64,000 nt of DNA from an uncultured Candidatus Saccharibacteria bacterium. Its GTDB lineage: Bacteria > Patescibacteriota > Minisyncoccia > Phycocordibacterales > UBA918. The notes under the pieces are model-generated. The model searched no databases and was not told the DNA's origin. It worked only from the letters and a program-made list of their open reading frames with translations. Every line of letters begins with the position of its first letter. Within the stretch, counting starts at the first letter, position 1. The stretch lies in contig CAYGLK010000001.1 of assembly GCA_964350985.1 (NCBI GenBank), positions 391,698-455,697 of the forward strand, written 5' to 3'. A program made the translations under genes and the position numbers. Positions 16,634-63,418 of the stretch are shown here, in pieces.

Positions 16634-16760
16634 CAAAATTGATAAACTCATACTTTTGTATGGGTTTATTAATTTCTGCGCTGGTGGATTCGAAGCCCGA
16701 TTGAGCTGGATTATGAGTCTACGAAATAATCTAGCCAATCGGGGTACTGAAACTGTAAGT

Positions 16761-16776: not shown

Positions 16777-16852
16777 ATAAAATCCATGAGAGTGACCGAA
16801 TCCCAGTATCTACGCACTTTGCGTGAAGCTTTTAGTAGTTACCAGAACAAAC

Positions 16853-50159: not shown

Positions 50160-50294
50160 TTACTAGTTATTCAAATCATTATGTAGATTATTTATAATGA
50201 TGAACCAAATATTGACAATTTATATATTTATTATATATTGTCATCAGCTCATTGCCGAGCATCAATCACAAACTATGGGGAGGCGACAATGCTC

Positions 50295-50570
50295 GAATTC
50301 ACAAACCTTCTCGTCTCTTGTCACACCTACTGCGGTGATGACGGTCTTGAGAGGTCAAATCTCCGTTTCTTTCACTCCGAAGAAGAGTACCGGAGCAAAT
50401 CACTTAGACTAGGCTGGGACAAGGACGGCTGGTGTACACCACCAGTTAGTCTACCTGCTTTAGTTGAAGAAAAGGCTTTAGCAGAGTTCAAAGGGGGTCA
50501 GGACCTCCCTTTGTACAACGTGTTCTTTCCAGACGATCTAGAGACGACGTTTCTGCGTCTTGTCGGCTAG
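50295..50570 (+). CDS. Small GC-rich hypothetical protein (opposite strand at distal end of cassette array)
   Basis: GGGGAGG 6 nt upstream of ATG; ~50% GC; followed by GC hairpin terminator at 50584-50611. Confidence 0.4.
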   Translation, partial: EFTNLLVSCHTYCGDDGLERSNLRFFHSEEEYRSKSLRLGWDKDGWCTPPVSLPALVEEKALAEFKGGQDLPLYNVFFPDDLETTFLRLVG

Positions 50571-50583
50571 AAAAAACTGTGTC

Positions 50584-50611
50584 AGGCGCTTCCGTTCACT
50601 CGGAGGCGCCT
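50584..50611. terminator. GC-rich hairpin terminator
   Basis: aggcgcttccgttcactcggaggcgcct followed by ATAATTTTA. Confidence 0.5.
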
Positions 50612-50656
50612 ATAATTTTATAAACATACGTCCATTTTCCTACTCCAACATTGTAA

Positions 50657-50683
50657 GCTGGCTGTATGGGACAATGTTAGAAC
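50657..50683 (-). repeat. Cassette-boundary element copy 1 (gctggctgtatgggacaatgttagaac), overlaps stop of 50683-51009
   Basis: Member of the ~30-bp family with consensus (gene-sense strand) AAAAAGTTCTAACRTCGTCCCATACAGCCAGC. Confidence 0.6.
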
Positions 50684-51009
50684 TATTCTCCATCAGGAAC
50701 CTCATTCAGAACAGCATAATCTACATGAGACACCTTAAGTATATCCTTGACCTCAGTAAATGATATTTCGCCGTATACACTACTCTTTCCCCATACATAG
50801 ATGTTTCTAGATTTACTAACCACCCTTATTCGACCTCCCCCCAACACATTCTCTACTACAATACCAGATTCCTCCATTTCTGTAGTTATATCTTTATGCC
50901 ACTCTACATTTGGATTACCCCACAAAATTAATTGTTCCAGACCGGAAACTTTTGCGACGATATATTTTTGAGTTACTTCTGGAAAAAGTTTTACTGCCTC
51001 AATATTCAT
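50683..51009 (-). CDS. Hypothetical protein (cassette)
   Basis: Intact 108-aa ORF; no domain recognised. Confidence 0.45.
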   Translation of the reverse strand: MNIEAVKLFPEVTQKYIVAKVSGLEQLILWGNPNVEWHKDITTEMEESGIVVENVLGGGRIRVVSKSRNIYVWGKSSVYGEISFTEVKDILKVSHVDYAVLNEVPDGE

Positions 51010-51042
51010 AAATTAATTATACTAAAGCAAGGAATAAGGCTT

Positions 51043-51837
51043 CTAGATCAATAAATTATTTATCTTTTTGAGCAATTCGGGGTTGCTGCACAAATAATCA
51101 CCCTCATACACACTGACATCGCTTCCTGCCAAATTATTCATCATGGCACCTGCCTCAGAAGCAATAATACTACCTCCCGCCACATCCCAAGGCTTTTGCT
51201 TTAGCCTAATCAAACCGTCAATCCTTCCACAGGCTAGATAACAAAATTCTGCTGCCATAGAACCTCTGCCAAAAACTGGGTCGATGTCTTCTTTGTTAGT
51301 GAATCCAAAATTCTTTAGATTTCCAATATTTTTTGAAAGTTTTTCGGTAACTCCTTCACTTTCTTTTTCTCTTCCAGGGTAAACTGAATAAGTAACAATA
51401 GCTTTATCTAAATCCGTTTGATCACCTACTTTTATTAGTTGGTCATTCATGAACGCCCCTCCACCCAAGGTGGCGTGAAATAATTCATCCCTTTTTGGCA
51501 AGAAAACCAATCCCATTATCAAAAGACCATTCTTCTCTAACCCTATAGAGATAGAAAAAGTGTCTCTACCAGCAACATAATTATTGGTTCCATCAATTGG
51601 GTCAATTATCCATTTATATTCTGAAGTACCAATTTCTTCACCGGATTCTTCACACAAAAAACCATCCTCAGGAAATTCTTTTTTCAGTATTTTGAGGATC
51701 AATGATTCTGAATCTTTATCCTGCTCTATTGCCAAAATACTTAAACTATCACTATCACGCGCACTATTTATATTCTTCATTAAAAACTCTCCTGCCTCTA
51801 AAGCAGCTTGTTTGGCAACGGATAAATATTTTTCCAT
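51043..51837 (-). CDS. Inositol monophosphatase family protein (SuhB/CysQ-like)
   Basis: WIIDPIDGTNNY and downstream GG..MN/D motifs of the IMPase fold. Confidence 0.8.
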   Translation of the reverse strand: MEKYLSVAKQAALEAGEFLMKNINSARDSDSLSILAIEQDKDSESLILKILKKEFPEDGFLCEESGEEIGTSEYKWIIDPIDGTNNYVAGRDTFSISIGLEKNGLLIMGLVFLPKRDELFHATLGGGAFMNDQLIKVGDQTDLDKAIVTYSVYPGREKESEGVTEKLSKNIGNLKNFGFTNKEDIDPVFGRGSMAAEFCYLACGRIDGLIRLKQKPWDVAGGSIIASEAGAMMNNLAGSDVSVYEGDYLCSNPELLKKINNLLI

Positions 51838-51927
51838 GTCTAATTACACTATCAGACTGGAAGTAATTTGCAATTTAAATTAAATTACTCAAATGTTTGA
51901 GGAGTGTTAAAATTGTTAACAACTCAA

Positions 51928-52209
51928 CTACATAGTAATAGTTGGATAGAAATGTTCTGGATTCCGGTTTTGTTCTTCAACCTCCAACAAAGAAAAGCGT
52001 TTCTTCCCTTCACTATTCATTCCTGTAAATCTTTCGATTGAAGTTGAATAAAGTTGTCCATGATCATATAAGGCTCGATAGATAACACGGAATTCATCCC
52101 CGTCATTGTCAGCAAATTTTGCTATATCAACTACTAAGTACTGATTGCCCCGATAGTGTTCGTAAACACGATTTCGCATTACTAAAGTTTCCAGTTTTTT
52201 GTATTCCAT
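51928..52209 (-). CDS. DUF1653-like small protein
   Basis: YEHYRGNQYLVVDIAKFADNDGDEFRVIYRALY pattern; leaderless TATAAT 7 nt before ATG. Confidence 0.55.
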   Translation of the reverse strand: MEYKKLETLVMRNRVYEHYRGNQYLVVDIAKFADNDGDEFRVIYRALYDHGQLYSTSIERFTGMNSEGKKRFSLLEVEEQNRNPEHFYPTITM

Positions 52210-52302
52210 ACTTAAAATTATACCAGCCTATACAGTCTGGAGTAGTGTTGTAACTTTTCTAAGTATACCAAAAAATCAGACTTCGTAAGAAAGTAAATAA
52301 AG

Positions 52303-53022
52303 CTAAATTGCTTTCACGGCCGAGACAATGACATCCATTATGTGACGAAAATGGAATTCGATATCTTCAAATCCAGATTTCTTTAAAGAGTCCCTCTGCT
52401 CTCTTTCAGTAAGTTTGAATTCGTCATCTTCGAGGTAATGATCCCTCCAATGACTTTCGAGTTCAGGGTATCCTTTCTCAGTAAATATCTTAAACGCGTC
52501 AAGCATATCTTGGAGATCTTTTTGATGTAAACTTGAATTATCTCGAGCAATCTTGTCTCCATTTATATAAACCCCTCCAGACAGCATAATATTGCCAATC
52601 CGATCGAAAAGACTTTTCCTATATCCCACAGGAAGATTGTGAATCGTAAAAGCCGAGACAAAGATATTAATGTTATAAATCTCATTCAAAGCATCCAATA
52701 AATCTTTTTCAATGAAAACAACCCTGTCTTCGTATTCCTTAAGATATTCCTTGGCCTGATTCATTAAAGCGGGTTCATTATCAATAGCCAAAACCCTGAC
52801 TCTCTTGTCACTGTCTAAAAGAATCTTTGTAGTTAAACCAGTTCCGCTTCCTCCTTCGTATACATCAATTTGAGTAGAATCATCTGCTTCATACTTGGAC
52901 TGAATATATTTTGCTAAGACATTACCTACCTCTTTCTGAAAAGAGTCATAGTGTGGAACAGCCATATTGAAGAGGTTGTATTCCTGACCTATTGAACCTG
53001 AGAATCTTTGATCGCTTTTCAT
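52303..53022 (-). CDS. Class I SAM-dependent methyltransferase
   Basis: VYEGGSGTGLTTKILL motif I. Confidence 0.6.
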   Translation of the reverse strand: MKSDQRFSGSIGQEYNLFNMAVPHYDSFQKEVGNVLAKYIQSKYEADDSTQIDVYEGGSGTGLTTKILLDSDKRVRVLAIDNEPALMNQAKEYLKEYEDRVVFIEKDLLDALNEIYNINIFVSAFTIHNLPVGYRKSLFDRIGNIMLSGGVYINGDKIARDNSSLHQKDLQDMLDAFKIFTEKGYPELESHWRDHYLEDDEFKLTEREQRDSLKKSGFEDIEFHFRHIMDVIVSAVKAI

Positions 53023-53191
53023 AAATAATATTTGAAGAATGTTAAAAATTATACGATTTATTTTAGATTTGTTTATTCAAGAGCATCTTAACACAATCAG
53101 CTTGTTAGTGAAAAAGTAAATATTAAAATACAAAAACAGCCCGCGAAACGAGTCCGTAGACTGTTCCTGCGAGCTATTGCTCAAATCCATC

Positions 53192-53884
53192 TCACCAACT
53201 CTTCGAGATTCGCATCCCGAATGTTGCATGTTGCCCAGTTTCGCCGGCATACCAGTCGACCAACGAGCCAACCGACACACGGTTGGGTAACTGATAGTCG
53301 ACAGCAACCCTGCCCCAAGCGCCGGTGTACCCATCATGAGTTTGATGACTGACGCCGATGCCAACGGTCGAAGACCAAGGGCTATCGAAATCACGTATCC
53401 AATCCGCACCCGTCCGGATTGACCAGGTCTCGATAAGACCTGTTATGCGGCCACCACCAGCCCAGATCCTGAGTGAATCATTCTCGCTCAGAGTGATAGT
53501 CCTTCCGATTTCGGCCTGTAGCCGAATGATGTCGGAATCGAGGTCAAAATCAGTCGCTGACGGAGTCGGCAGGTCGAAGTAGGCGAAGGAGATCTTCAGA
53601 TCGACTTCTCCGACCTTGGTTCCACAGCCGAGGGAGTAGTCGATTTCATTCCCTTCGTTGCCGAAGTCGATTGCCGACGATGCCCAGAAGTCTGCGAAAC
53701 AGTCTTCTCCGCTGAAAGTTATTCCACTTTGCACGACTGGGTTCTGATCTTGTACAAACCCAAACTCAACGAAAGAATAGTCCGACTTGATGGCGCTGTA
53801 AGCCGTCACTGTCTGACTCTGAGCCTTACCAGCCAAAAAAGAGGCGGTAAGGATGAAAATTACGAAGAACGAGAATCTGTTCAC
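53192..53884 (-). CDS. Outer-membrane beta-barrel-like secreted protein (GC-rich, GTG start)
   Basis: Signal peptide; alternating amphipathic beta-strand pattern; C-terminal aromatic (..SKSW); local GC ~55%; GCAGGAG RBS before GTG. Confidence 0.5.
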   Translation of the reverse strand: MNRFSFFVIFILTASFLAGKAQSQTVTAYSAIKSDYSFVEFGFVQDQNPVVQSGITFSGEDCFADFWASSAIDFGNEGNEIDYSLGCGTKVGEVDLKISFAYFDLPTPSATDFDLDSDIIRLQAEIGRTITLSENDSLRIWAGGGRITGLIETWSIRTGADWIRDFDSPWSSTVGIGVSHQTHDGYTGAWGRVAVDYQLPNRVSVGSLVDWYAGETGQHATFGMRISKSW

Positions 53885-54166
53885 GGTCTACTCCTGCGAT
53901 TAAGGTAAGAACTACTGATCAAACAACGTTTACTATAGAATAATAACCCGTTTTATTCAAATGTCAAGCTTCACTTTCATCTCTTACTGCAGCCTACAAA
54001 AAAACATGCTACATTAGCAATGCTGTGCTGAGGTATGTGTAGCATAGGTGGGAGGCTTTGAAGCAGTTTCGCCAGATTCTGTGGAGCCGACAGTGAAATA
54101 CCAGCCCGCCCTGGACAGCCGGAGCGTCTCTCGAGACGCTCCGTTTTATATTATAAATTGAACTTT

Positions 54167-54194
54167 CTGCATGGGACGATGTTAGAACTTTTTT
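54167..54194 (-). repeat. Cassette-boundary element copy 2 (ctgcatgggacgatgttagaactttttt)
   Basis: Same family as other copies. Confidence 0.6.
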
Positions 54195-54252
54195 ATAAAT
54201 AAAAAGGCTCCCGATCGCTCGGGAACCTCTTGGCACTCCACAGTGCCTGCTA

Positions 54253-54414
54253 TCCTTCGGACTCGTCCTCAACGAGCAAACCAGTTTCCTTATCCACGGA
54301 AAGGATTCTGCCTTCGTCATCAAGGACTGAGTGTGCACGGACACCGAGGCCGGTTTCGAAGGATCCGTCTTCAGCAAGCCCTGGAGGCTTTTGACCAATG
54401 GCATATTCGCTCAT
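54253..54414 (-). CDS. Small GC-rich hypothetical ORF (53 aa) followed by hairpin
   Basis: MSEYAIGQKPPGLAEDGSFETGLGVRAHSVLDDEGRILSVDKETGLLVEDESEG; the overlapping listed ORF 54009-54404 runs through the boundary repeat and is rejected. Confidence 0.3.
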
Positions 54415-54505
54415 TTGAGTTCTTCTTCAGTTTGCGGACGGGATTCATCCAAAAGTATTTTAACACACCTTTACAAAACCGAAAATATCAGTGCTGTAAC
54501 AGATT

Positions 54506-55018
54506 TTAGTTATTTTTAATATATTCTTCTACTGCCAGGACATCCTGCATTTGATACTGATGGTCTGCATCAGCTAGTTCTTTTTTGTAGGCCACTAAGT
54601 CGCGTGGATCCATTAATGAAACTTCTATACCGTTTATCACTACCAACTTATTGGGAAATTTACGAAAGTGATCTTTTGTTTGAAACCATTCTGTTTGTTC
54701 CTTATTGCTCATCCGCAAGGTGTCGATGTCAGTCATATCAATTTCTTGACCAAAGTAATTAAGTGAAAGTGTATTACAATCCCACTTTGCGTTTGAATAG
54801 TGTTTTGGACCAGCGGTTATATATTCCTTAGTTTCTGAGACAATAATTGGAAAGTGTTCACCGGAGATAGAAAAATCTAAATCATTTACAGGCCGACCAG
54901 ATCCATAGATATGAGCAGCAAATCCGCCGCCGATGCGGTACGGAATATTATTTCTATTTAAAATTTCCACAATCCACTTCAGGGCATTTAATGTTTTATC
55001 TTCTAGTTCTATTTTCAT
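54506..55018 (-). CDS. Pol-beta-fold nucleotidyltransferase, lincosamide/aminoglycoside nucleotidyltransferase (Lnu/ANT)-like
   Basis: IGGGFAAHIYGSGRPVNDLDFSI matches the G-x-G...D-x-D NTase motif in a ~170-aa protein like LinB/Lnu enzymes. Confidence 0.55.
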   Translation of the reverse strand: MKIELEDKTLNALKWIVEILNRNNIPYRIGGGFAAHIYGSGRPVNDLDFSISGEHFPIIVSETKEYITAGPKHYSNAKWDCNTLSLNYFGQEIDMTDIDTLRMSNKEQTEWFQTKDHFRKFPNKLVVINGIEVSLMDPRDLVAYKKELADADHQYQMQDVLAVEEYIKNN

Positions 55019-55035
55019 GTTTTGATTATATATTT

Positions 55036-55560
55036 CTAATTCGCAACCACATATTTAGCTGCATCTAGAAGTGTCGGAGAAACATAAGTTACTTTCTCAA
55101 CAATAACTGGAACTGTCGCAGTCTGTAAAAGAATTGTTTTTACTCCGGCGCTGATTCCCGACTTAATGTCTGACTCCCGATCTCCAACCATATATAAATT
55201 TTCTGGCTGTAGATTAAATTCTTTTATTGCTTCCAAAATCATTTTTGGACTTGGTTTTCGACAATCACACATGTCTCCTGGCCCATGTGGACACATGTAA
55301 GTTTTTAAAACCTTAACATCACTTGCCTTGAGTAATTCAAGGACCTTAGTATGAATTCTTTCAAAATCAGAAACAGTAATTCTGCCTTCTGCGATACCTG
55401 CTTGATTAGTTATTAAAATAACTGAAAAATCATGTTGCGCTAGATATGAAAGAGATTCAATGGTATCTGGAAATAATTCTATTTTGTTTTCCGTATCAAC
55501 CCTTTCATCAGCAGGTTCCCTGATAACGGTACCATCACGATCTAAAAAAATTACTTTCAT
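55036..55560 (-). CDS. HAD-IIIA phosphatase, D,D-heptose-1,7-bisphosphate phosphatase (GmhB)-like
   Basis: FLDRDGTV motif I, ITNQ motif II, Zn-site CPHGPGDMCDCRKP, GDRESD motif IV. Confidence 0.75.
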   Translation of the reverse strand: MKVIFLDRDGTVIREPADERVDTENKIELFPDTIESLSYLAQHDFSVILITNQAGIAEGRITVSDFERIHTKVLELLKASDVKVLKTYMCPHGPGDMCDCRKPSPKMILEAIKEFNLQPENLYMVGDRESDIKSGISAGVKTILLQTATVPVIVEKVTYVSPTLLDAAKYVVAN

Positions 55561-55591
55561 GTTCTTATTACATTAACTAATATCATAATCT

Positions 55592-56515
55592 TTATAATAA
55601 ACGAGTCACTCTTACCTTATTCTTTTCATATTTCTCTTTTTGGTTTGTAAATGAAGAAAATGCCAAACTACCCAGGCCGATACATAACTTATAACAAAGC
55701 ATACGCTCAGTATAATCCTTTATTTGTTTTCCATTTTTACTTGAATGCTCTAAATAGGCCGCCTGAAAATCAAATTCACTTGCGGACCAAAAATCCAGCC
55801 AAGCCAAATCAAATAAAAAATCTCCGTACATTGAATTTTCCCAATCAATTACCCCAGTAATTTTTTCACCATCCGACAAAGTGTTATTAAAACCATAATC
55901 TCCATGGATCAAGTAACGGTCTTCTGGGCAATATGAAACTAGTTCAGAGAATTTAGTATATGCAGTGTCCCAAAAATCTTTTTCAAGAAATGATGTCTCA
56001 AAAAGACCTGGTTTTTCTGCTGTACTAATAGTCCTCTTATTTACTGCCAATAACTCTTCCTTCCAACTCTTACTTTCACCACACTGTTCTAGATTCCATT
56101 CTCCATAACCAATTGTATGACTGATATCAATAACATGCACGGCATCGAGGACACTAAAAAGCTCAGGTAACAAACTTGTCATTTCATTGGTTGAAAATTC
56201 AGTCAAAATTTTACCTTTACTCTTTTCCGAAATACAAAATCGCAGCTCGTTATTTATTTTTCCAATGCTATATATTTTAGGTACAGGTAGGATATCTGAA
56301 CCAAAATTCTTAGCCGCATACTCATCTTTTCTAAAACCTAGAGTGTGATGCTTGTTAAGTCGAATAACATATTCGACTTTATTTACAGAAAAACTATATG
56401 CTTGCGACCCCTCACCACCTGAGATTACTTTAAAGTCTGTTACTTTATCCGAAAATGTTTTCTGCAGATATGCAACCACGTCAACTTGATCAACAATTGT
56501 TTTATAGTCGGACAT
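55592..56515 (-). CDS. Aminoglycoside phosphotransferase (APH) / protein-kinase-like family phosphotransferase
   Basis: IHGDYGFNN catalytic loop and VIDWENSMYGDFLFD Mg-binding segment (PF01636-like). Confidence 0.75.
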   Translation of the reverse strand: MSDYKTIVDQVDVVAYLQKTFSDKVTDFKVISGGEGSQAYSFSVNKVEYVIRLNKHHTLGFRKDEYAAKNFGSDILPVPKIYSIGKINNELRFCISEKSKGKILTEFSTNEMTSLLPELFSVLDAVHVIDISHTIGYGEWNLEQCGESKSWKEELLAVNKRTISTAEKPGLFETSFLEKDFWDTAYTKFSELVSYCPEDRYLIHGDYGFNNTLSDGEKITGVIDWENSMYGDFLFDLAWLDFWSASEFDFQAAYLEHSSKNGKQIKDYTERMLCYKLCIGLGSLAFSSFTNQKEKYEKNKVRVTRLL

Positions 56516-56584
56516 AAATTTATTTAAAAAATGACATAGATAATTATAAAAATTCCTTTCCCAGGGATAACAGTAGGTGAGTAA

Positions 56585-57112
56585 CTATGGTTTTTCTGTC
56601 ACGCTAAGGACTTTGGTTAATGTCTCCTCTAAAGTTCCATTCGCATCTATAACTACGGCCCCTAGTTGAGTTAAACTATCTTCAAATGATTTTTTAATTT
56701 CAATAATCCAATCTTGCATCTCTGGGTCTCTAGCAAAATCATGAGTCTCTCTTGTAGAGAGCCTGTGTCGAACATTATCAGGCGAGGCCTGAAGTAGAAT
56801 GACCTTATCGAACAATGGCACAATATCAGTAATGTTTGTTGCTGTTCCACAATAGAAACTAATTCTATCTGTCTCCTCTTCCATAAGTTGAGACAGCTTT
56901 TCTCTACTACAAGCAAAAACTAGATGCTTGATTTGATTAAGATCATTAGTATTCCATTCAGTAATAACTTCTCCTGTTCGCGAATCAGTAGTTTCAAACA
57001 TCCCAGGGATAATTTCAATATCATGTACAGTATAGCCACCCGCCCTTAAGCTTTTTCCAATAGTTGATTTTCCTGTCCCAGACATACCAGTAATTAGAAT
57101 AGTTTTCTTCAT
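56585..57112 (-). CDS. P-loop NTPase (AAA_33/shikimate-kinase-like small kinase)
   Basis: Walker A ITGMSGTGKSTIG at N-terminus; ~175 aa. Confidence 0.6.
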   Translation of the reverse strand: MKKTILITGMSGTGKSTIGKSLRAGGYTVHDIEIIPGMFETTDSRTGEVITEWNTNDLNQIKHLVFACSREKLSQLMEEETDRISFYCGTATNITDIVPLFDKVILLQASPDNVRHRLSTRETHDFARDPEMQDWIIEIKKSFEDSLTQLGAVVIDANGTLEETLTKVLSVTEKP

Positions 57113-57163
57113 ATGTTTAATAGTATCATTTTGTTTTAATATGACAGTTAATTATTTAAGTGA

Positions 57164-57197
57164 CATCTGCCTTTCTGAGACTAAGTTAAGATTTTTA
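57164..57197 (-). repeat. Cassette-boundary element copy (diverged: catctgcctttctgagactaagttaagattttta)
   Basis: ~70% match to family consensus. Confidence 0.45.
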
Positions 57198-57199
57198 TA

Positions 57200-57772
57200 C
57201 TATGACCTCAACTGAAACTTTCGATAAATATCCCAATATCCATCGTCACCTTCCAAAGCTAAACAAACATTATCAATACTTATACTCCTATCAAAAGTTG
57301 CATCGACCAAATGCTCTTTAATTTTTTCAAAGCCCTCCAGAGATAGATCTTTATAAGCAACTGTTATATGTGGATTATAAGGCCAAGGCTGATCATACCA
57401 ACTTGCATGTTCTTTTTTAAGATTATCTTCAAAAAAACTCGCTATCGTACCTAGACTTCCATAATCAAAAGGTTTTATATATACAACATACGGTGAAAAT
57501 CCTAATTTTGCTCCTGGCCAATTATCCATGTATGAATAATCATTAGTTTTAATTTCAGTAACAGGAACTGTATCTAAAAAATTCTGAATTTTTTCACAAA
57601 AAATATCCAGTTGTTCACCTGAAACCTTTAAACCCGAGCCCACAGTAATGTGGGGCGACCAAGCTTTAAGTGAACCTTTTGAGCCAGACAATAAAGATAA
57701 TTCATTTTGAATATCACGAATTTCTTTTGTCATTTCTTTATCAAAATATGAGACAATAGAAAATCTTTTCAT
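57200..57772 (-). CDS. 2H phosphoesterase superfamily protein (LigT / 2'-5' RNA ligase-like)
   Basis: Two H-x-T-x motifs (HITVG and HITVA) at typical spacing. Confidence 0.65.
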   Translation of the reverse strand: MKRFSIVSYFDKEMTKEIRDIQNELSLLSGSKGSLKAWSPHITVGSGLKVSGEQLDIFCEKIQNFLDTVPVTEIKTNDYSYMDNWPGAKLGFSPYVVYIKPFDYGSLGTIASFFEDNLKKEHASWYDQPWPYNPHITVAYKDLSLEGFEKIKEHLVDATFDRSISIDNVCLALEGDDGYWDIYRKFQLRS

Positions 57773-57831
57773 AAGTTAATTATATCAAACATAATCTCAA
57801 ACTTTTCAAGTTGATAAATATAGCTATATTA

Positions 57832-57861
57832 CTGTACTGGAGTGACGTTGGAACGTTTTTA
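57832..57861 (-). repeat. Cassette-boundary element copy (ctgtactggagtgacgttggaacgttttta)
   Basis: Same family. Confidence 0.55.
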
Positions 57862-57871
57862 GGTTAACAAA

Positions 57872-58308
57872 TTATCTAGTAGGGCGATAAATAACACCAT
57901 CTTTCATATTATTTAAAGTTCCTTCAGAGGGTTCAAAAATGTTTTCCGGGAGAGCATCTAGAGAGAACCATTCCCAACGATCGCATTTATGCGGCTCCAT
58001 ATTCTTCGGCTCACCCCCATTATAATGAGCTACCACAGAAACATTCAAGTAATGCTTATCGTCAGACTCTATGTAACGCATTTCATCAAAAACCGAGACT
58101 AGTTCAAAATCAGAAACATCTAAGTCAGTCTCTTCTTTTACTTCACGCTTCGCTGTCTCAAACACTGTTTCGCCAAATTCTAAGTGCCCCCTGGAAATGA
58201 CCACTCCCCTGTACCATGCGAAGAATTACGTAGACCTAAAAGCACTTCATTTTCGGAATTTAGAATAACGACACCAATCCCAACTCTAACATTTGGTTTT
58301 TCTTTCAT
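57872..58308 (-). pseudogene. Nudix hydrolase with -1 frameshift in a G5 tract (~58193-58197)
   Basis: Minus-strand ATG at 58308 encodes MKEKPNVRVGIGVVILNSENEVLLGLRNSSHGTGEWSFPGG then hits TAG; adding one G restores FPGGHLEFGETVFETAKREVKEETDL (Nudix box) continuing into ORF 57872-58204. Confidence 0.6.
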
Positions 58309-58387
58309 AACAACAGTATATCAAATTTGACCGTCCTCTATTGGAGTCTCGAACTTTAGTACGTTGCTAAATATAGCTTAAACTCGT

Positions 58388-58420
58388 TGCTGACTGTCTG
58401 GGACGACGTTAGAATTTTTT
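58388..58420 (-). repeat. Cassette-boundary element copy 3 (tgctgactgtctgggacgacgttagaatttttt)
   Basis: Same family; upstream flank gttgctaaatatagcttaaact also matches the array head at 62760-62780. Confidence 0.6.
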
Positions 58421-58426
58421 ACAACC

Positions 58427-59128
58427 TTAATCAACTTCTGGAACCCAAACCCCTTCTTTATACTTTTGAACAGGATGACCTCCACAAGGAATATCTCCCA
58501 TGAAGAAAACTACATCAATTACAGTCTCACCCGCATTATCATCCCTAGTGTAGTCGTACTTAACAATTTCACCATCTTCACCTTTAGTAGTGATATCCAA
58601 TCTCTTGAGACCATCTTCATCTTCCTCTCGTCGAACAATTTCATACTCGCCCCCACCAACAATTTCTTCAAGTACATTTAATACTTCTCTTTCATTGAGA
58701 ACTTTTTCTGCACTTTTTTCATTTGATTGTGTTTCCTCATTAGCCTGCATTAGTAGAGACACTTCTAATAGTAACTTCTCAGATTCTAACTGACTTCTTT
58801 CCACAGCAGCTTTGACTTCACTTGGTCGCGGATCTAAATCAATATCTAAATCAGCATACTGAGTAATATCTACCCAATTAAGACCTCTCCTTTTAACTTC
58901 TGCCCTAATTTCTTCAAAAGAAGCTGTTTCAGGCAACTCCAATAAATTAGCCATTTTCACAAAATGCCTTCTCTCATACTCTTCATCAATTTCTTCAAAA
59001 GAAGCCGTGTCTGGAAGGGCATATTTACGAGCTTTTAGTAGTCTCATTTCTTCACTCCATTCTATTTCATCTCTATGGTAAGGTAGTTCATTTCTCTTAA
59101 CACCTTCATTTGTCATTTTTTCAGTCAT
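58427..59128 (-). CDS. Hypothetical acidic protein (cassette)
   Basis: Intact 233-aa ORF; internal duplicated LPxTASFEEI segments; leaderless TATACT 6 nt before ATG. Confidence 0.45.
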   Translation of the reverse strand: MTEKMTNEGVKRNELPYHRDEIEWSEEMRLLKARKYALPDTASFEEIDEEYERRHFVKMANLLELPETASFEEIRAEVKRRGLNWVDITQYADLDIDLDPRPSEVKAAVERSQLESEKLLLEVSLLMQANEETQSNEKSAEKVLNEREVLNVLEEIVGGGEYEIVRREEDEDGLKRLDITTKGEDGEIVKYDYTRDDNAGETVIDVVFFMGDIPCGGHPVQKYKEGVWVPEVD

Positions 59129-59207
59129 GTTACAAGTATACCAAAAAATTCTATGGTCCCTATCAGGTACTAAATTTTAGTTTAAAAAATAAGGCTTAAA
59201 TAATTTA

Positions 59208-59237
59208 CTGGCCGTATGGGAATGTTAGAACTTTTTT
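59208..59237 (-). repeat. Cassette-boundary element copy 4 (ctggccgtatgggaatgttagaactttttt)
   Basis: Same family; forms 5' arm of ~100-bp imperfect inverted repeat ending tgatagggaccatagaat near 59150. Confidence 0.6.
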
Positions 59238-59276
59238 AAGTATATGAAAACGCCCTAACCAAGCAGCGCTTTCGGG

Positions 59277-59849
59277 TTAGGGCGTGGTCTCGATGAGACG
59301 AACTACATTGTTGAAGACTTCTTTTTTTGAACCGGCTGGCACTAGATTCAACTGTGGAATCTGCCCAGCAACCTGATCGAACACCATAGAGTCGGCCAAG
59401 CGCCTGACGATAGTTTCGTCTGTCTCTCCCCGGCTCCTGAGACGACGTGTCAGCTCATCAACTCCTGGAGCAACCAGATGAACTGGAATACATCTAACGC
59501 CCCTACCTTGGAACCAATCTGACACCAGCTGGTGGCACTCAGGAATAATGCAAACGAATGCCAGGCCACCTGTCTCAGCTGCCGCCTCAGCAAACTGTGA
59601 CTCAGTGCAACAGTATTGGTGGCCGTGATTAAGGACTTTCCAAATAAATTCCGTGATATCTCTCAGACCTTCCAATGTCTGAAAGTCATAATCGACGTCA
59701 GTTTCATAAGGACGGCGAGGACGAGTGGTAATGCTGCGCACCCTGCCGCCACCGTAGTGAGTCTCCAGAGCTCGTTCCAGGGTTGTTTTACCAACTCCTG
59801 AGGCCCCAGTGATTGTCACAACCTTCTTGATCATTGTCCAGAACTCCAA
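59277..59849 (-). CDS. Guanylate-kinase-like P-loop protein (GC-rich; probable start 59831)
   Basis: ITGASGVGKTTL Walker A then SITTRPRRPYETDVDYDF (GMP-binding TTRxxRxxE..G.DY.F); ~52% GC; GGAG RBS instead of leaderless -10; terminator hairpin cgccctaacc...ggttagggcg after stop. Confidence 0.65.
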   Translation of the reverse strand: MEFWTMIKKVVTITGASGVGKTTLERALETHYGGGRVRSITTRPRRPYETDVDYDFQTLEGLRDITEFIWKVLNHGHQYCCTESQFAEAAAETGGLAFVCIIPECHQLVSDWFQGRGVRCIPVHLVAPGVDELTRRLRSRGETDETIVRRLADSMVFDQVAGQIPQLNLVPAGSKKEVFNNVVRLIETTP

Positions 59850-59933
59850 TGTGTGCTTTCAGCATAAAATCACAGATTAAGTGATTCGTCAATATTAGAA
59901 AATGTGGCCAGCCGTCATTTTTTCAAAAGTTTT

Positions 59934-60524
59934 TTATAAAACAGCCCAAAATACTTTCCATTCAAAATCCCTCAATGTCACTAGCTCCAGTTCTAGGTTA
60001 GTGTTTTCTAAAAGTGAAAGGGCTTGTGGGTTTGGTGGTAAATCTTTGCTTTCAAAATGGCATACAATTCTCAACGGCAAAAGACCAAGTCCTTCACGAA
60101 CCTTACCTCCAGACTCGTCATCATGAAAAGGACTGTACTTACCAATCACATATGCTCCTGCAGAAGATCCGGCAATTGTCTTTCCCTTTAAGTTCTCCCT
60201 AAGGTTATTGTACTTATTTAATGCAGTGAGAAGTCTTGGTGTACTGCCTCCACGCAAGTAAAGTGCGTCTGACTTCTTGAGTTGTTCAATGAAATCATTT
60301 TCATTAGCTAACAAAAAATGCAACTGCTTTCCTTGTGCCTGCTCTTTATGCTTTTTAATATTTTCCTCAAACTTCCCGGCACTATCTTCATCTGTTGAAG
60401 CAAAATGACAAAGTAATATTGTCGCTTGATCTGGCAAATCACGCACAATCTCCTCATAAAAAGTCCGATTTTGTTCATTGTCAGTACCTGTATATCCACC
60501 ATGTAGAATAAACTTAGTTTTCAT
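59934..60524 (-). CDS. Peptidase S51 family (dipeptidase E / cyanophycinase-like)
   Basis: LYLRGGSTPRLL and IAGSSAGA (GxSAG nucleophile) motifs. Confidence 0.7.
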   Translation of the reverse strand: MKTKFILHGGYTGTDNEQNRTFYEEIVRDLPDQATILLCHFASTDEDSAGKFEENIKKHKEQAQGKQLHFLLANENDFIEQLKKSDALYLRGGSTPRLLTALNKYNNLRENLKGKTIAGSSAGAYVIGKYSPFHDDESGGKVREGLGLLPLRIVCHFESKDLPPNPQALSLLENTNLELELVTLRDFEWKVFWAVL

Positions 60525-60549
60525 ATATATATTATATCAAAATATCAAA

Positions 60550-60590
60550 CTGGCTGTTTTGGGACGATGTTAGAGCTTTTAAACTCTAAC
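60550..60590 (-). repeat. Cassette-boundary element copy 5 (ctggctgttttgggacgatgttagagcttttaaactctaac)
   Basis: Same family; contains a local palindrome GTTAGAGC-TTTAAAAG-CTCTAAC. Confidence 0.6.
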
Positions 60591-61133
60591 CTACTCTTGT
60601 ACTGGTCTCACCATCTCAATTACAGGCAACATCCCTTTATATAAAGCAATCTCTGTATCAGTCTTTTTGAAACCATATCTTTCATAAAAACTTATAGCTG
60701 AATCATTAAAACGAAATGCCTCCAAACGAGAATATTTTTCGTGATCTGACCATGACAAAAACTCTTCAATCAGTTTAGGTCCTATTCCCATACCCTTAGC
60801 TTCATTCAGTAGATATATAGCGTCAAGTTCGTTATATGTCTCATGTTTTATTCCATGCATAAAACCAACAATCTCTCCACTTCCATTTCTTACTACTCTA
60901 TAAATTACTTTTTCTGGATTTGCCAAAGCTTCAGCAATCACTTTTCTTCTATAGTCTGTATTAATTAACATCTCTCCACGCATTTCATCGACCATTTCAT
61001 CAGTAAGACCTGACTCTTCACCTACATATGATTCTTTCCAAGACTGAATATGCATCTTAGCTAGCGCTAATTCTTCACCAACTTTTGGTAATTCGATTTT
61101 GAATGACGGGCTATTCTCTATATTACTTTCCAT
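60591..61133 (-). CDS. GNAT family N-acetyltransferase
   Basis: GMGIGPKLIEEFL motif A; typical GNAT length. Confidence 0.75.
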   Translation of the reverse strand: MESNIENSPSFKIELPKVGEELALAKMHIQSWKESYVGEESGLTDEMVDEMRGEMLINTDYRRKVIAEALANPEKVIYRVVRNGSGEIVGFMHGIKHETYNELDAIYLLNEAKGMGIGPKLIEEFLSWSDHEKYSRLEAFRFNDSAISFYERYGFKKTDTEIALYKGMLPVIEMVRPVQE

Positions 61134-61164
61134 GTAGGAAGTATATCAGAGCAAAATATTACTT

Positions 61165-61584
61165 TTATAATGCTTCAAATGCCTTAGAAAGCATAGACCC
61201 CTGTCCTGACTGAAGTACATGGGCAGATTCTAGTGGAATCCAAAAACATTCAAATTTAATACCCCCTTCACTACTTGCCCAACGTTCTGGCAAATCTTCT
61301 GTTGGTTCAGCTAAGAAAAAGTGTCTTTCTTGTATTTCTTTTCTATATGGCGTCATATCATAATCTTGAACACCTAGCTGTTTAATTATTTTAAAACAAC
61401 TATAACCAGTCTCTTCTTGTAGTTCACGCATAGCTGCCACCTCAGGAGATTCGTCTTGTTCAATCGTTCCAGCCGGGACTTGAATACCTACTTCTTCATA
61501 AGAGAAATCAACATGGCGAAACACCAGTAATTTGTTATTACTAATTACATAAACAATTACTTTCTTTTTATGCGCTTTATCCAT
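61165..61584 (-). CDS. Nudix hydrolase
   Basis: Nudix box VPAGTIEQDESPEVAAMRELQEETGY. Confidence 0.8.
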   Translation of the reverse strand: MDKAHKKKVIVYVISNNKLLVFRHVDFSYEEVGIQVPAGTIEQDESPEVAAMRELQEETGYSCFKIIKQLGVQDYDMTPYRKEIQERHFFLAEPTEDLPERWASSEGGIKFECFWIPLESAHVLQSGQGSMLSKAFEAL

Positions 61585-61602
61585 TACCTTAATTATACCA
61601 AA

Positions 61603-61640
61603 CTGGTTTATGCCTATCTGAGACTATGTTTGAACTTTAA
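61603..61640 (-). repeat. Cassette-boundary element copy 6 (diverged; overlaps coding 3' end of 61614-62075)
   Basis: ctggtttatgcctatctgagactatgtttgaacttt; ~75% match to consensus and encodes C-terminal KFKHSLR. Confidence 0.5.
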
Positions 61641-62075
61641 TTTACCAATAGTAGATTTTGTAATTTCTGTAAGCGCTGCCTCAACATCCAGAAAATCCCC
61701 CACCTTTGTTTTTTTGCTTGGGTTACCTTCAAAATATCTTTTGTCGAAATCCAACAAATTATTTTTTAATTCTTCGCTGATTTCACATTCATCTCCTTTT
61801 ATTACAACTAGTATTTTGTGATCAGCTTGATCATCTTCAAAATATTCAACCATTCCGATTGGAACACACTCAACTACTGAACTATGTGTAAGTTCTTTGT
61901 CCGTTATTACATAACAATCTAATTCATCCCCATCTGCAGCCAGAGTGTCCAGAATGTAACCATAGGGGTACGGATAGGTAATATGAAAGTCTACCGTCTT
62001 TTCATAGGCACCTGTTTTTTTATTAAAAACATTCTTTTTTAATGTTTGACTAGTCTGCTCAATAAAAACTTTCAT
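61614..62075 (-). CDS. ppa: Inorganic pyrophosphatase (family I)
   Basis: YPYPYGYILDTLAADGDELDCYVI....VVECVPIGMVEYFEDDQADHKILVV matches the family I motifs (YPxNYGFIP.T...DGDPLDVLV....R.VG....D..G.D.K..AV). Confidence 0.75.
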   Translation of the reverse strand: MKVFIEQTSQTLKKNVFNKKTGAYEKTVDFHITYPYPYGYILDTLAADGDELDCYVITDKELTHSSVVECVPIGMVEYFEDDQADHKILVVIKGDECEISEELKNNLLDFDKRYFEGNPSKKTKVGDFLDVEAALTEITKSTIGKLKFKHSLR

Positions 62076-62152
62076 AATCTGAAGTATACCAAAGTTCTAT
62101 AGTCCCTAACGGATACTAAGTTTTAGATTGAAAAATAAGCCTCTAATATCGA

Positions 62153-62190
62153 GCTAGCTGCATGAGACGACGTTAGAACTTTTTTAATAA
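62153..62190 (-). repeat. Cassette-boundary element copy 7 (gctagctgcatgagacgacgttagaacttttttaataa)
   Basis: Same family; 5' arm of ~100-bp imperfect inverted repeat ending ccgttagggactatagaac at ~62100. Confidence 0.6.
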
Positions 62191-62191
62191 A

Positions 62192-62710
62192 TTAGTCAAT
62201 TCTGTATTCAGCATTTTCTGGTAATGAAATATCTTTAAACTCAAAAGTGACGCCAAGTCTCTTCATCTCTTCTACAGGATTATCAATTCTTTCAATTTCA
62301 ATTGGTTTAGTAGGTTCATTTGAAACCACTTCTAAATTACCTAATCCTTCTTTGTACACAAAAGTATTATCATCAAACTGATATAAATAGCCGCCTTCTC
62401 CATAAAGCACTTGCAGACTAGCTTCTAATGAATCAACCCCAATTATCAATACGGATTTATTATTGTCGTACAGACTGACACCCATACCATAGCTACCCTT
62501 AAAGCCCTCTTTTTTAATAGGCCTCGGATTATCTGTGTACGCTAGGGCAATCCACCTTTCTCGAGTAGCGTGAAATGATTCTTCATCAAAAACAACGACC
62601 GTAACACCCTCTTCATTTTCTTGAGTTCTGACTTGCCTTGATGGTCTAGCTTCTTCAGCATCAAATTTTTCACACGTACCGTGAAAAACTCTATTAGGTA
62701 TTTTTTCCAT
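62192..62710 (-). CDS. Hypothetical protein (first cassette after tRNA-Gln)
   Basis: Intact 172-aa ORF; leaderless TATAAT 6 nt before ATG. Confidence 0.45.
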   Translation of the reverse strand: MEKIPNRVFHGTCEKFDAEEARPSRQVRTQENEEGVTVVVFDEESFHATRERWIALAYTDNPRPIKKEGFKGSYGMGVSLYDNNKSVLIIGVDSLEASLQVLYGEGGYLYQFDDNTFVYKEGLGNLEVVSNEPTKPIEIERIDNPVEEMKRLGVTFEFKDISLPENAEYRID

Positions 62711-62785
62711 GATTAAATTATATCAAATATATTTCTATCAGAGACTCAAACTTTTATATGTTGCTAAATATAGCTAAACTGTGTA

Positions 62786-62804
62786 GCTGCCGATCAGGGA
62801 CTCG
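62786..62804 (-). repeat. 19-nt exact direct repeat of the tRNA-Gln 3' end (gctgccgatcagggactcg); proximal att-like site of the cassette array
   Basis: Identical to 62969-62987 inside/abutting the tRNA; the following sequence (ggtcaggagtcgtttatttaataa) is homologous to the tail of the downstream boundary elements (gacgttagaattttttacaa). Confidence 0.7.
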
Positions 62805-62927
62805 GTCAGGAGTCGTTTATTTAATAATCGTTCCACTCATTTAAATAATACGCTCACTACCCTGGCGGGTCAAACAGTCTCCAGACTGTTTGCTTCCGCC
62901 TTTCTCGTCCCCGATCTCGCAGGCTGA

Positions 62928-62967
62928 GACACTAAAATAGCTAGCAAAAGCTAGCTATTTTAGTGTC
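62928..62967. repeat. Perfect 18-bp-arm palindrome (gacactaaaatagctagc aaaa gctagctattttagtgtc) abutting the tRNA-Gln 3' end
   Basis: Read directly from sequence. Confidence 0.7.
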
Positions 62968-62969
62968 AG

Positions 62970-63040
62970 CTGCCGATCAGGGACTCGAACCCCAATAGCT
63001 GGTACCAGAAACCAGAGTCCTACCATTAGACGAATCGGCA
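62970..63040 (-). tRNA. tRNA-Gln (anticodon CTG)
   Basis: Minus strand folds as TGCCGAT / D-arm GTCT-AATGGTA-GGAC / anticodon arm CTGGT-TTCTGGT-ACCAG / variable CTAT / T-arm TGGGG-TTCGAGT-CCCTG / ATCGGCA + discriminator G; U1-A72 as in bacterial tRNA-Gln. Confidence 0.7.
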
Positions 63041-63058
63041 ATGTATTTGATTGTTTGT

Positions 63059-63087
63059 GAGCTGGGTTCAATTCCCGGACTCGATCC
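63059..63087 (+). repeat. Plus-strand tRNA 3'-half fragment (T-arm CTGGG-TTCAATT-CCCGG + acceptor ACTCGAT) with no 5' partner
   Basis: Canonical T-loop TTCAATT but no matching 5' acceptor strand upstream; integration scar. Confidence 0.4.
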
Positions 63088-63253
63088 TTACTTGAACAAA
63101 TGAGTATCTAAATCAATGCTTGCATGGATTTATGATACGAATGCAGTTCAAGAATGCTTTGCATACAGGATCAGTACAGGTTGTCATTATTTTATTTCGT
63201 TTCCTCATAAAATGCCAGGCAACCTCCTTCGACAGTTTCCCAAACTGTCTCAG

Positions 63254-63328
63254 CCCCAATAGCTGGTACTAGGTAAATAGTCATGGGATGACTATTTACG
63301 GAGTCCGCTTCAGGACGAATCGGCAATG
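63254..63328 (-). pseudogene. Disrupted second copy of tRNA-Gln (pseudo-tRNA)
   Basis: Shares TGCCGATTCGTC (acceptor/D-stem) and TACCAGCTATTGGGG with the intact tRNA, but anticodon region replaced by ~40 unrelated nt and no T-arm. Confidence 0.5.
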
Positions 63329-63418
63329 TTTTCTTTTGGTCTGCAACACCTTTATTCCACTCAATTTTTCTGTGCTGTGGCAACATATTGCCACAACTGT
63401 AAAAATATTCCAAGGATC

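Follow-up and report, generated by a model that had tools for sequence, protein, structure and literature searches.

Near the right end of a 64,000-nucleotide stretch of the genome of an uncultured Candidatus Saccharibacteria bacterium (contig CAYGLK010000001.1, assembly GCA_964350985.1; the whole stretch is hereafter called the window and all positions refer to it), a tRNA-Gln(CTG) gene on the minus strand is accompanied by partial copies of its own sequence and by palindromes. The intact gene, placed at 62970-63040 by a first-pass annotation of the sequence, is called by both ARAGORN and Rfam (Table 1) and is, together with a tRNA-Ser(GGA) gene on the plus strand, one of the two tRNA genes that these tools detect in the window. 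A stretch of 20 nucleotides from its 3' end (AGCTGCCGATCAGGGACTCG, 62968-62987) recurs exactly at 62785-62804, where the annotation had recognised 19 positions (62786-62804). The 19-mer of the tRNA 3' end has two matches in the window, against none expected from 100 shuffles, even with up to three mismatches allowed. The annotated perfect palindrome abutting the tRNA 3' end (18-bp arms) and a second one near 62880 (10-bp arms) were likewise confirmed. In what follows, S0 designates the tRNA 3' end (the last 19-20 nucleotides), T the abutting palindrome, S' an inverted copy, X a structured core and S a direct copy. The pairing of T can be extended into the GCAGC of the tRNA. A simple terminator scan made no call on T in the window; relatives carry a different palindrome in the same position, perfect or near-perfect, and several of these are G+C-rich stems followed by T runs. 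A 10-nt inverted repeat (GGCTGAGACA/TGTCTCAGCC) was considered as a pair of transposon ends and rejected, since chance alone would give about two pairs of this kind in 2 kb and the relatives give it no backing.

Downstream of T, the parts S', X and S form a module of about 135 nt, which we call type A. It folds with a minimum free energy of -54.7 kcal/mol (z = -5.9) into a three-way junction that is closed by pairing of S' with S. Type-A homologues in seven loci of other genomes (numbered L013, L026, L047, L029, L128, L139 and L069) have a common skeleton, with a core consisting of GGGAC(G/U)(A/C)GAA, a stem, GGGGUCGAGAR, a hairpin and AYUCGUGAC, and one G.U pair is invariant in 8/8 type-A modules. 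Inside the window module lies a promoter candidate (-35 TTGACC, 17-nt spacer, -10 TATTAT) without a counterpart in L026.

Upstream of the intact gene, the claimed second, partial copy of tRNA-Gln (63254-63328) proved to be real. Positions 63254-63272 match the 3' half of the anticodon stem, the variable loop and the 5' half of the T stem at 95%, and positions 63314-63332 match the acceptor 5' strand together with the first part of the D arm, also at 95%. The two segments are separated by what remains of the D arm and by a perfect hairpin of 12 bp (63273-63284 / 63288-63299), whose loop reads CCC on the tRNA strand. This pseudo-copy has neither the T-stem 3' strand nor the acceptor 3' strand, and a module stands in place of its T loop. 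It has homologues in L134 and L063, and among these two genomes and the window the 12-bp hairpin is maintained by four compensatory pairs. At 63254-63332 ARAGORN makes no tRNA call, Rfam makes none even at E<=10, and no acceptor 3' strand follows, so that the pseudo-copy is not an intron-bearing second tRNA. A tmRNA-like or permuted tRNA reading of GGGGACGAG...GAGTCCC was rejected as well, since the 3' tail is at odds with it and ARAGORN reports no tmRNA. At the anticodon position the pseudo-copy reads CTA (amber-reading) and not CTG, in the window as in L134 and L063; lacking an anticodon stem, this CTA is probably meaningless, the base being conserved nonetheless.

The seemingly unrelated spacer between the pseudo-copy and the intact gene scores 33.2 bits (E 7.5e-7) at 63150-63228 (-) with R1, a covariance model of a second module type (type B), and is therefore a degenerate type-B module; after removal of its insertion it can be aligned to 18 family members. 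The 73-nt insertion holds an internal repeat (GCAAAGCATT / GCAAGCATT). The letters that had been annotated as a plus-strand tRNA 3' half do exist (GGGTTCAATTCCC at 63064-63076 (+), then GGACTCG), but they are not a stray tRNA half: they are the reverse complement of a truncated S and a diverged inverted S', a pair that regularly occurs in the module family. On the tRNA strand the letters are CGAGTCC-GGGAATTGAACCC: the tRNA 3' segment in truncated form and, behind it, the T arm of the tRNA in a diverged and inverted copy.

The order of tRNA 5' part, X, CGAGTCC, inverted S'-like segment, about 25 nt and intact tRNA is common to the window, L134, L020, L063 and L067; the disrupted second copy is an old layer and not the product of a recent event. 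A promoter-like site lies upstream of the pseudo-copy and not of the intact tRNA. The corresponding block (CTTGAAT...TGTGGCAATAT / TATGGCACTATA) precedes the intact tRNA in L013 and L026, the pseudo-copy in the window and L134, and a remnant (ATTGGGG) in L020, indicating that the pseudo-copy occupies the ancestral position of the tRNA.

Table 1. Features of the tRNA-Gln and tRNA-Ser loci and of the adjoining gene array (positions in the window)
Feature	Position	Strand	Remarks
Promoter-like site	63385-63413	-	-35 TTGGAA, 17-nt spacer, -10 CAATAT preceded by TGTGG; function inferred
Pseudo-tRNA-Gln	63254-63325	-	acceptor 5' strand, D-arm remnant, 12-bp hairpin in place of the 5' half of the anticodon stem, then CTAGTACCAGCTATTGGGG
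Degenerate type-B module fused to the pseudo-copy	63064-63253	-	R1 match 63150-63228
Degenerate type-B: hairpin	63231-63249	-	
Degenerate type-B: long hairpin P3	63178-63226	-	
Degenerate type-B: junction GTACTG	63172-63177	-	
Degenerate type-B: P4 halves	63164-63171 and 63084-63090	-	
Insertion of 73 nt in the P4 loop	63091-63163	-	particular to this genome; absent from the otherwise colinear L134
Degenerate type-B: truncated S (CGAGTCC)	63077-63083	-	
Degenerate type-B: inverted S'-like GGGAATTGAACCC	63064-63076	-	annotated earlier as a plus-strand tRNA half
Intact tRNA-Gln(CTG)	62969-63040	-	ARAGORN; Rfam tRNA 50.7 bits
T, perfect palindrome with 18-bp arms, abutting the tRNA	62928-62967		arms 62928-62945 / 62950-62967; position of a terminator-like hairpin
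Type-A module (about 135 nt)	62785-62922	-	S' + core X + S; after T
Type-A: inverted arm S', CTGCGAGATCGGGGACGAG	62904-62922	-	
Type-A: stem GGCGG/CCGCC		-	encloses conserved hairpin 62871-62892 (10-bp arms 62871-62880/62883-62892)
Type-A: long hairpin	~62805-62862	-	
Type-A: closing direct repeat S1	62785-62804	-	same sequence as the tRNA 3' end
Junction element with the first cassette's promoter	62711-62784	-	TTTAGCTATATTTAGCAAC, second diverged T-loop copy AAGTTTGAGTCTCTGAT, extended -10 TTTGATATAAT 7-8 nt before ATG
First cassette gene (172 aa)	62192-62710	-	weak DUF6886 match
Array of ~18 co-oriented small genes	50652-62188	-	
S-like repeats	62163-62179, 60560-60576, within 59132-59240, 58399-58415, 57838-57854, 54172-54188, 50667-50683	-	
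tRNA-Ser module locus	16547-16816	+	R1 78.8 bits, E 1e-19; fold z = -5.5
tRNA-Ser(GGA)	16547-16634	+	followed by a weak hairpin
S'(Ser)	16683-16694	+	
Type-B core behind tRNA-Ser	16685-16771	+	R1
Exact 16-nt copy of the tRNA-Ser 3' part	16761-16776 (= 16614-16629)	+	
Third copy of the tRNA-Ser 3' part	16797-16816	+	after type-A tail GAGAGTGAC

Relatives of the locus were found by scanning 185,579 species genomes for CGAGTCCCTGATCGGCAG, which returned many tRNA-Gln(CTG) genes of Patescibacteria, several of them with extra 18-mer copies 155-196 nt downstream; a metagenome scan contributed 13 further loci, and the loci were surveyed as 8-kb blocks. The layout of tRNA, palindrome, S', X and S behind tRNA-Gln(CTG) is present at more than 30 loci of Patescibacteria (L013, L026, L035, L089, L107, L108, L128-L140 and others), belonging to Saccharibacteria, Parcubacteria/Paceibacteria and Kaiserbacteria. 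The modules measure 90-170 nt, with S' and S 66-110 nt apart, inverted and pairing over arms of up to 21 bp (L104); S' is sometimes split by an inserted hairpin such as ACAGTCYGGRGACTGT. The closing helix is exactly the 7-bp acceptor stem UGCCGAU/AUCGGCA. The type-B core consists of GAAR, the long hairpin P3, GUACUG and a 5-6-bp hairpin P4 with the loop UGUAA. Tandem and nested modules were observed, as were modules on the distal side of gene groups (L035, L023, L128, L139, L138), and some are truncated. In all of these loci X is oriented alike, always on the tRNA strand, which excludes an invertible promoter switch between S' and S. S' as a primer-binding site for reverse transcription was rejected because CCA has no pairing partner in the bases before S', and reverse transcriptases had no match among the scanned window ORFs (open reading frames) and the commonest families of the related loci. 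As a further observation, the long hairpins of both module types have an apical motif AUGAG-N-GAA(R)CGAAAU (window 63190-63215 and ~62825-62845; L026, L139, L013), and their 3' strands often contain TATAAT or TAAAAT; a protein might bind this loop, or a promoter might point outward from it.

Selection acts on the folds of these modules. Single-sequence folding gives the same junction architecture in divergent sequences. Among 20 type-B cores, 90.2% of the pair cells hold standard pairs, compared to 68.3% in shuffles and at most 49% in slid-partner controls, and compensatory changes are found in 20/30 type-B pairs. In L023 both arms have moved away from the tRNA sequence by compensatory changes (GATC/GATC to CGAC/GTCG). 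Moreover, the tRNA-sense strand folds better than its complement in 24/29 scanned sequences (a set that includes a few chance matches outside Patescibacteria), which, together with the invariant G.U pair, means that it is one particular strand that folds. The fragments around the tRNA are not scars that decay independently; they are defined parts of two conserved and covarying module types.

The second tRNA gene of the window provided a further instance. R1 was built from 18 type-B cores of tRNA-Gln loci in other genomes, without any window sequence, and was run unfiltered on the window. It has only two significant sites there, both adjacent to a tRNA: the degenerate module described above and a core behind tRNA-Ser(GGA). 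The arms of the two differ and correspond to the local tRNA. Both arms of the tRNA-Ser module are tRNA-Ser sequence (GGATTCGAA / TTCGAATCC), and its core is the same as at tRNA-Gln, so that both tRNA genes of the window carry the module with arms that follow the tRNA. As a double-stranded phage-type attachment site (attP) would need a match of S only, the change of the inverted arm argues that the pairing of S' with S matters. The tRNA-Ser module is followed by an orphan gene (16934-17455) that is rich in G+C and coincides with a local rise of the G+C content to 46.5%.

Comparison of occupied and empty sites, made between species, indicated how the modules arrived. Where the module is lacking, an encoded CCA and a conserved flank often come behind the tRNA-Gln gene; in eight such loci the flank directly after the tRNA is CCAACTYGWG. 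None of the 12 tRNAs with an exact S behind them has an encoded CCA, versus 16 of the 51 others. In occupied loci T follows the tRNA in place of the CCA flank, and this flank is found behind the distal S in L013, L107, L132, L135, L137 and L140 (in the first three as CCAACTYGWG). The distal S is thus the original tRNA 3' end, and the present 3' end of the gene arrived with the insert. In L026, L129, L134 and L139, whose tRNA-Gln is identical to that of the window, the sequences diverge right after GGCAGC and differ in T and in the types and order of modules, including tandem and nested ones, from which it follows that turnover is fast relative to divergence of the tRNA. The first-pass annotation had taken this end for the active recombination end of the array: a hotspot of recombination and insertion at the tRNA-proximal end of the array it is, but the tyrosine-integrase mechanism attached to it was not supported. 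As to an arrangement that would be invariant among relatives, the answer is mixed, the architecture being conserved while sequence and cargo vary. Separately, tRNA-Thr(TGT) has immediately behind it an exact copy of the 18-mer of the tRNA-Gln 3' end (L062 1265-1282 and L124/L069, contig JAQBRH010000004.1), ~62 kb from tRNA-Gln on the same strand and contig; this copy may mark the distal limit of a very large island, or else have been transferred from one tRNA site to another.

Beyond the type-A module, the minus strand carries an island of small genes that ends beside a peptide deformylase gene. The first of these is preceded by a junction element that aligns to other inter-cassette regions (nhmmer E 3e-24) and that is present as the same block in L004 and L026. 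Relatives of its product are named Parcubacteria or Nomurabacteria, and the genome to which the window belongs is Parcubacteria-like. The gene occurs in at least four other contexts, always with an S-like repeat 3-10 nt after the stop codon, and in five contexts homology ends after the CAGC (equal to the tRNA 3' end) of this repeat; synteny around the gene is not conserved, which pointed to mobility of the cassette. The S-like junction repeat, AAAGTTCTAACRTCGTCCCAnACAGnCAGC, can be aligned to the tRNA 3' end and is found only at 50.6-62.8 kb of the 64-kb window and only on the minus strand. It is often followed by a short inverted GGGACnnnGAAC and then by an extended -10 element 7-8 nt before an ATG. 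In the intergenic regions of 50160-62784 (-), most array genes show such an extended -10 (TTTGATATAAT / TTGGTATACT) at this distance and no Shine-Dalgarno sequence. This suggests that the genes are leaderless and that each has its own promoter, the -10 being so close to the start codon and a Shine-Dalgarno sequence being absent.

The cargo at 50683-62710 abounds in enzymes that act on small molecules and on nucleotides or RNA ends. Examples with Pfam matches are APH, GNAT, NUDIX (2-3 genes), two P-loop kinases, a PNK-type HAD phosphatase, a 2H/LigT phosphoesterase, a pyrophosphatase and peptidase S51; others are a nucleotidyltransferase-like protein, an inositol monophosphatase and Janus/Ocnus. 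The mix resembles integron cargo or an RNA-repair toolkit. Families of these cassettes stand next to tRNA-Gln in L026, L054 and L059 in different orders, and more homologues are found elsewhere in the tRNA-Gln loci L055 and L121. A function of the S-like repeats as DNA-uptake sequence was rejected, since they are confined to 12 kb of the window. Searching viral contigs (L141-L260) for the S-like motif yielded 120 matches, nearly all of which are the coding motif VWDDVGTF in a single family of phage cytosine-methyltransferase genes, which we regard as coincidence, amplified by this one family: the 17-nt S-like pattern is the reverse complement of codons for VWDDV(G/R)TF of a cytosine-5 methyltransferase (the family was named from motifs in one translated ORF of L141). 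The window repeats would encode VWDDVRTF on the opposite strand, judged a coincidence as well.

The window as a whole has a GC content of 35-41% and a negative plus-strand GC skew over its entire length. Most of its genes lie on the minus strand, and from skew sign and gene orientation the minus strand is the leading-strand sequence. The cumulative skew does not switch at the tRNA-Gln locus.

A recombinase was sought with Pfam in 50 window ORFs (all of at least 170 aa, minus seven of more than 550 aa) and in 121 ORFs from 22 module-bearing loci, of which the commonest families were read. Multiple partial tRNA copies had been interpreted as the footprint of a tyrosine integrase; neither a tyrosine integrase nor any other recombinase was found among these window ORFs or these commonest families, a result compatible with a host enzyme acting in trans. 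The conserved neighbours upstream of the tRNA in module loci are dnaX and a histidine phosphatase. In one IMG/VR contig (L008, 6040-7513) a prophage-like segment lies directly behind the same tRNA-Gln, with genes for a large serine recombinase, a terminase-like helix-turn-helix protein, a ParB-methylase and a VRR-NUC protein. The tRNA in L008 keeps its CCA flank, so that the site of that element lies outside the tRNA. In several Saccharibacteria (L063, L079, L090, L119, L120) a conserved ...GCATACCTGCTGAGAGCAGTAT... is found behind the CCA flank of tRNA-Gln, possibly the attachment (att) site of an L008-type element.

We interpret the locus, with moderate confidence, as the result of site-specific insertion at the T loop of tRNA-Gln by means of folded att hairpins that mimic the tRNA end, with a recombinase acting in trans. 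The locus would then be the tRNA-proximal end of an additive gene-cassette island, built by repeated insertion at one site that extends from the T loop to the 3' end of tRNA-Gln(CTG). Each inserted unit would consist of a tRNA 3'-end copy that restores the gene, followed by T, S' and X and then by the displaced original S, with or without genes behind it. The S':S helix would reproduce the duplex of the 3' end of the tRNA gene, with X as a branched cap, and the folded single strand would be the recombination substrate, as is the case for the integron attC or the CTX-phage attP hairpin. The recombinase acting on this fold would be encoded elsewhere in the genome, and the short hairpins of S-like repeat and S' behind the cassette genes may be a reduced form of the same site. 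Both the use of the folded strand in recombination and the nature of the folding molecule, DNA rather than RNA, are deduced here. More tentatively, we propose that such integrase-less (trans-acting) gene capture is widespread in Patescibacteria, with folded att hairpins copying tRNA 3' ends and inserting modules and self-promoted single-gene cassettes at the T loop; tRNA-Gln, tRNA-Ser and probably others would be the tRNAs used.

Several observations weigh against insertion through folded att hairpins. The upstream arrangement, in which the 5' rather than the 3' part of the tRNA is displaced, is left unaccounted for. In the window, L134, L020, L063 and L067, X lies between the promoter-like site and the intact tRNA, and would be transcribed if this conserved site drives the tRNA. 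Some nucleotides of X are near-invariant (GAAR, GUACUG, the loop UGUAA and the apical AUGAG..CGAAAU), which is more typical of a functional RNA than of attC, as the loops of integron attC sites vary. Compared to the tRNA, the S-like repeat contains an insertion of 4-5 nt and is conserved in this variant form, which the proposed mechanism does not explain, and the cassettes differ from those of classical integrons in bringing promoters of their own. No recombinase emerged among the tested window ORFs or the commonest families of the module-bearing loci, which leaves the central step without an enzyme. The concerted change of the two arms can also be explained by one protein binding both arms of duplex DNA. 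Finally, we infer from the between-species comparison that the system is still active; no excised circle, same-species empty allele or population polymorphism was observed.

The main rival, which we consider unlikely though clearly the strongest of the alternatives, is that the modules are structured non-coding RNA genes, or cis parts of the tRNA-Gln and tRNA-Ser precursors, in which the closing helix mimics the acceptor and T stems. Such an RNA could serve as a decoy or processing signal, or could regulate tRNA maturation, its spread and the cassette island being secondary. The strong covariation of the local hairpins, the near-invariant junctions and loops, the invariant G.U pair, the better folding of the sense strand, the constant location on the tRNA strand and the exact copy of the acceptor stem in the closing helix are all in line with it, as is the position of X between promoter-like site and tRNA in five genomes, where it would belong to the precursor, provided that this promoter is the one driving the tRNA. 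The two readings are not told apart by covariation by itself, as searches for it also pick up DNA recombination sites such as attC (PMC5737381). What speaks for a DNA site is the mode of occurrence: tandem, nested, truncated and distal copies are insertion-like and not gene-like, and the displaced CCA flank shows arrival by an insertion that duplicated the tRNA end. In addition, the downstream copies lie behind a terminator-like hairpin without a conserved promoter of their own being seen (the sole candidate, TTGACC/TATTAT, is absent from L026). In Rfam only the two tRNAs of the window reach threshold, and even at E<=10 no further family is matched apart from chance microRNA-like matches on the palindrome. 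A hammerhead or other small ribozyme was rejected on the same absence of an Rfam match and on the order of the core elements.

A more conventional explanation, in which double-stranded elements with their own tyrosine integrase repeatedly entered and left tRNA-Gln, the fragments and palindromes being inert remains (attR scars, arm sequences) and the integrase lying outside the window or being lost, appears improbable to us. The direct repeats of the tRNA 3' segment start in the T loop, which is reportedly among the sublocations used by integrases within tRNA genes. The displaced native flank, the variable content among relatives and the prophage with a recombinase beside the same tRNA in L008 fit this explanation too, and the same island model was put forward for Prochlorococcus (bioRxiv 10.1101/2020.12.28.424599). 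It accounts for the direct repeats and the displaced flank, but not for the covarying core or for the inverted arm that changes with the tRNA: inert leftovers would not hold hairpins by compensatory change over phylum-level distances, nor would they switch the inverted arm from Gln to Ser along with the direct arm. Furthermore, no integrase was found in the 63 kb downstream (50 ORFs tested) or among the commonest families of the 22 loci, the upstream neighbours are housekeeping genes, the enzyme of L008 is a serine recombinase with a site outside the tRNA, and module patterns have no match on any IMG/VR viral contig.

Still less probable are non-autonomous transposons resembling miniature inverted-repeat transposable elements (MITEs) or REPINs (hairpins formed by paired repetitive extragenic palindromic sequences), which would have terminal inverted repeats of ~20 bp, a transposase elsewhere (e.g. 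HUH/RAYT) and a preference for tRNA 3' ends. The arms of the modules look like terminal inverted repeats (up to 21 bp in L104), size (90-170 nt) and strong single-strand folding would be appropriate, and a Y1 transposase fragment is present in a related Nomurabacteria genome. Against this, the window modules are restricted to the two tRNA genes instead of being dispersed, their arms are not constant and equal the 3' end of the adjacent tRNA, and no transposase was found nearby among the tested window ORFs or the commonest families of the 22 loci. The 16-20 nt duplicated at the target are also far more than transposons leave, whose target duplications are far shorter. That no mobile element was involved, the locus having formed by local tandem duplication, palindrome formation and gene conversion, is very unlikely: long palindromes such as S0-T-S' can come from fold-back synthesis and the upstream unit of L063 resembles a tandem repeat of leader, tRNA part and module, but the same core X behind another tRNA with matching arms (which already disfavours this explanation), the differing T palindromes among relatives with an identical tRNA and the unrelated cargo shuffled between genomes are left unexplained.

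Insertion through folded att hairpins would share features with several known systems, although no description of these modules or of such cassette arrays in bacteria of the candidate phyla radiation (CPR) was found in the literature. Additive islands anchored at a tRNA and containing partial tRNAs have already been described as tycheposons in Prochlorococcus (bioRxiv 10.1101/2020.12.28.424599). There, as here, the genome is streamlined, the island starts from a full-length tRNA and contains scattered partial tRNA 3' copies, newer insertions displace older ones from the tRNA, cargo varies among close relatives and the T loop is where the repeat begins. Tycheposons bring along a tyrosine recombinase and replication genes of their own, neither of which was found here in the tested window ORFs and the loci examined, whereas the partial tRNAs of the present locus are embedded in conserved, covarying hairpin modules with an inverted copy of the site, and the cargo consists of single genes, each with its own promoter and 3' repeat. 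Of a classical tRNA island, the boundary tRNA, a repeat like the right-hand attachment site (attR) and the displaced flank (between species) are present; an integrase was not found among the tested window ORFs or the commonest families of the related loci.

Integrons resemble the locus in their co-oriented single-gene cassettes with an imperfect hairpin at the 3' end, in a structure that is better conserved than its sequence, in the folding of one strand, in the possible existence of arrays without an adjacent integrase, and in a cargo rich in APH, GNAT, nucleotidyltransferase and NUDIX genes. In contrast to integrons, no IntI was found in the tested ORFs, no attI/Pc platform is apparent and a tRNA gene stands in place of attI. 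The R''/R' consensus (RYYYAAC/GTTRRRY) is not evident, with near-matches by eye in GTTCTAAC and GTTAGGG, and the site has its origin in the 3' end of a tRNA, promoters are present on the cassettes themselves, and loops and junctions of the modules are conserved in sequence.

Similar in the proposed mechanism are integrative mobile elements exploiting Xer (IMEX) of the CTX-phage type, for which PMC3442271 describes a folded single-stranded attP that is recombined by host XerCD. Common to both are two inverted target-like sites, separated by ~90-100 nt, whose folding (predicted from sequence for the present modules) would give a hairpin resembling the duplex target. After integration the inverted pair is found on one side, beside the regenerated target, and tandem arrays occur. 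As proposed here, CTX-type elements need no integrase of their own. Unlike in these phages, the target is a tRNA 3' end and not dif, and the units are 160-190 bp or single genes and not phage genomes. REPINs and bacterial interspersed mosaic elements as well as Correia-type MITEs have a similar size (~100-170 nt), two inverted repeats around a spacer, strong folds, a location at gene 3' ends and a possible role as terminators; these, however, occur in hundreds of dispersed copies with constant ends, whereas the present modules are anchored at tRNAs and take their ends from the adjacent tRNA. Cis-mobilizable elements (CIMEs) are integrase-less, att-flanked elements that are mobilised in cis by accretion. 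They likewise are non-autonomous att-flanked units stacked in tandem at one site, but are kilobase-sized deletion derivatives of integrative and conjugative elements with ordinary duplex att sites.

On a practical level, partial tRNA copies and long palindromes such as these are likely points of breakage or misjoining in metagenome-assembled genomes. If it is true that a folded strand is recombined, hairpin att sites would have come into use independently for a third time, next to integrons and CTX-type phages, and the covariance model would offer a searchable signature for the flexible gene pools of uncultivated bacteria. If, instead, the modules act as RNA, they would constitute a new and widespread class of RNA that mimics tRNA ends. 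Should the gene-capture interpretation be true, integron-like islands would exist in genomes that are thought to be minimal and poor in mobile elements. CPR bacteria (Patescibacteria) have tiny genomes, and their routes of gene gain are poorly understood; the tRNA-Gln locus suggests one concrete, sequence-defined route, with the tRNA 3' end as a recurrent entry point, a conserved structured module of 90-140 nt whose arms copy the tRNA in front of it, and an island of shuffled kinase, phosphatase, NUDIX, GNAT, APH and nucleotidyltransferase cassettes.

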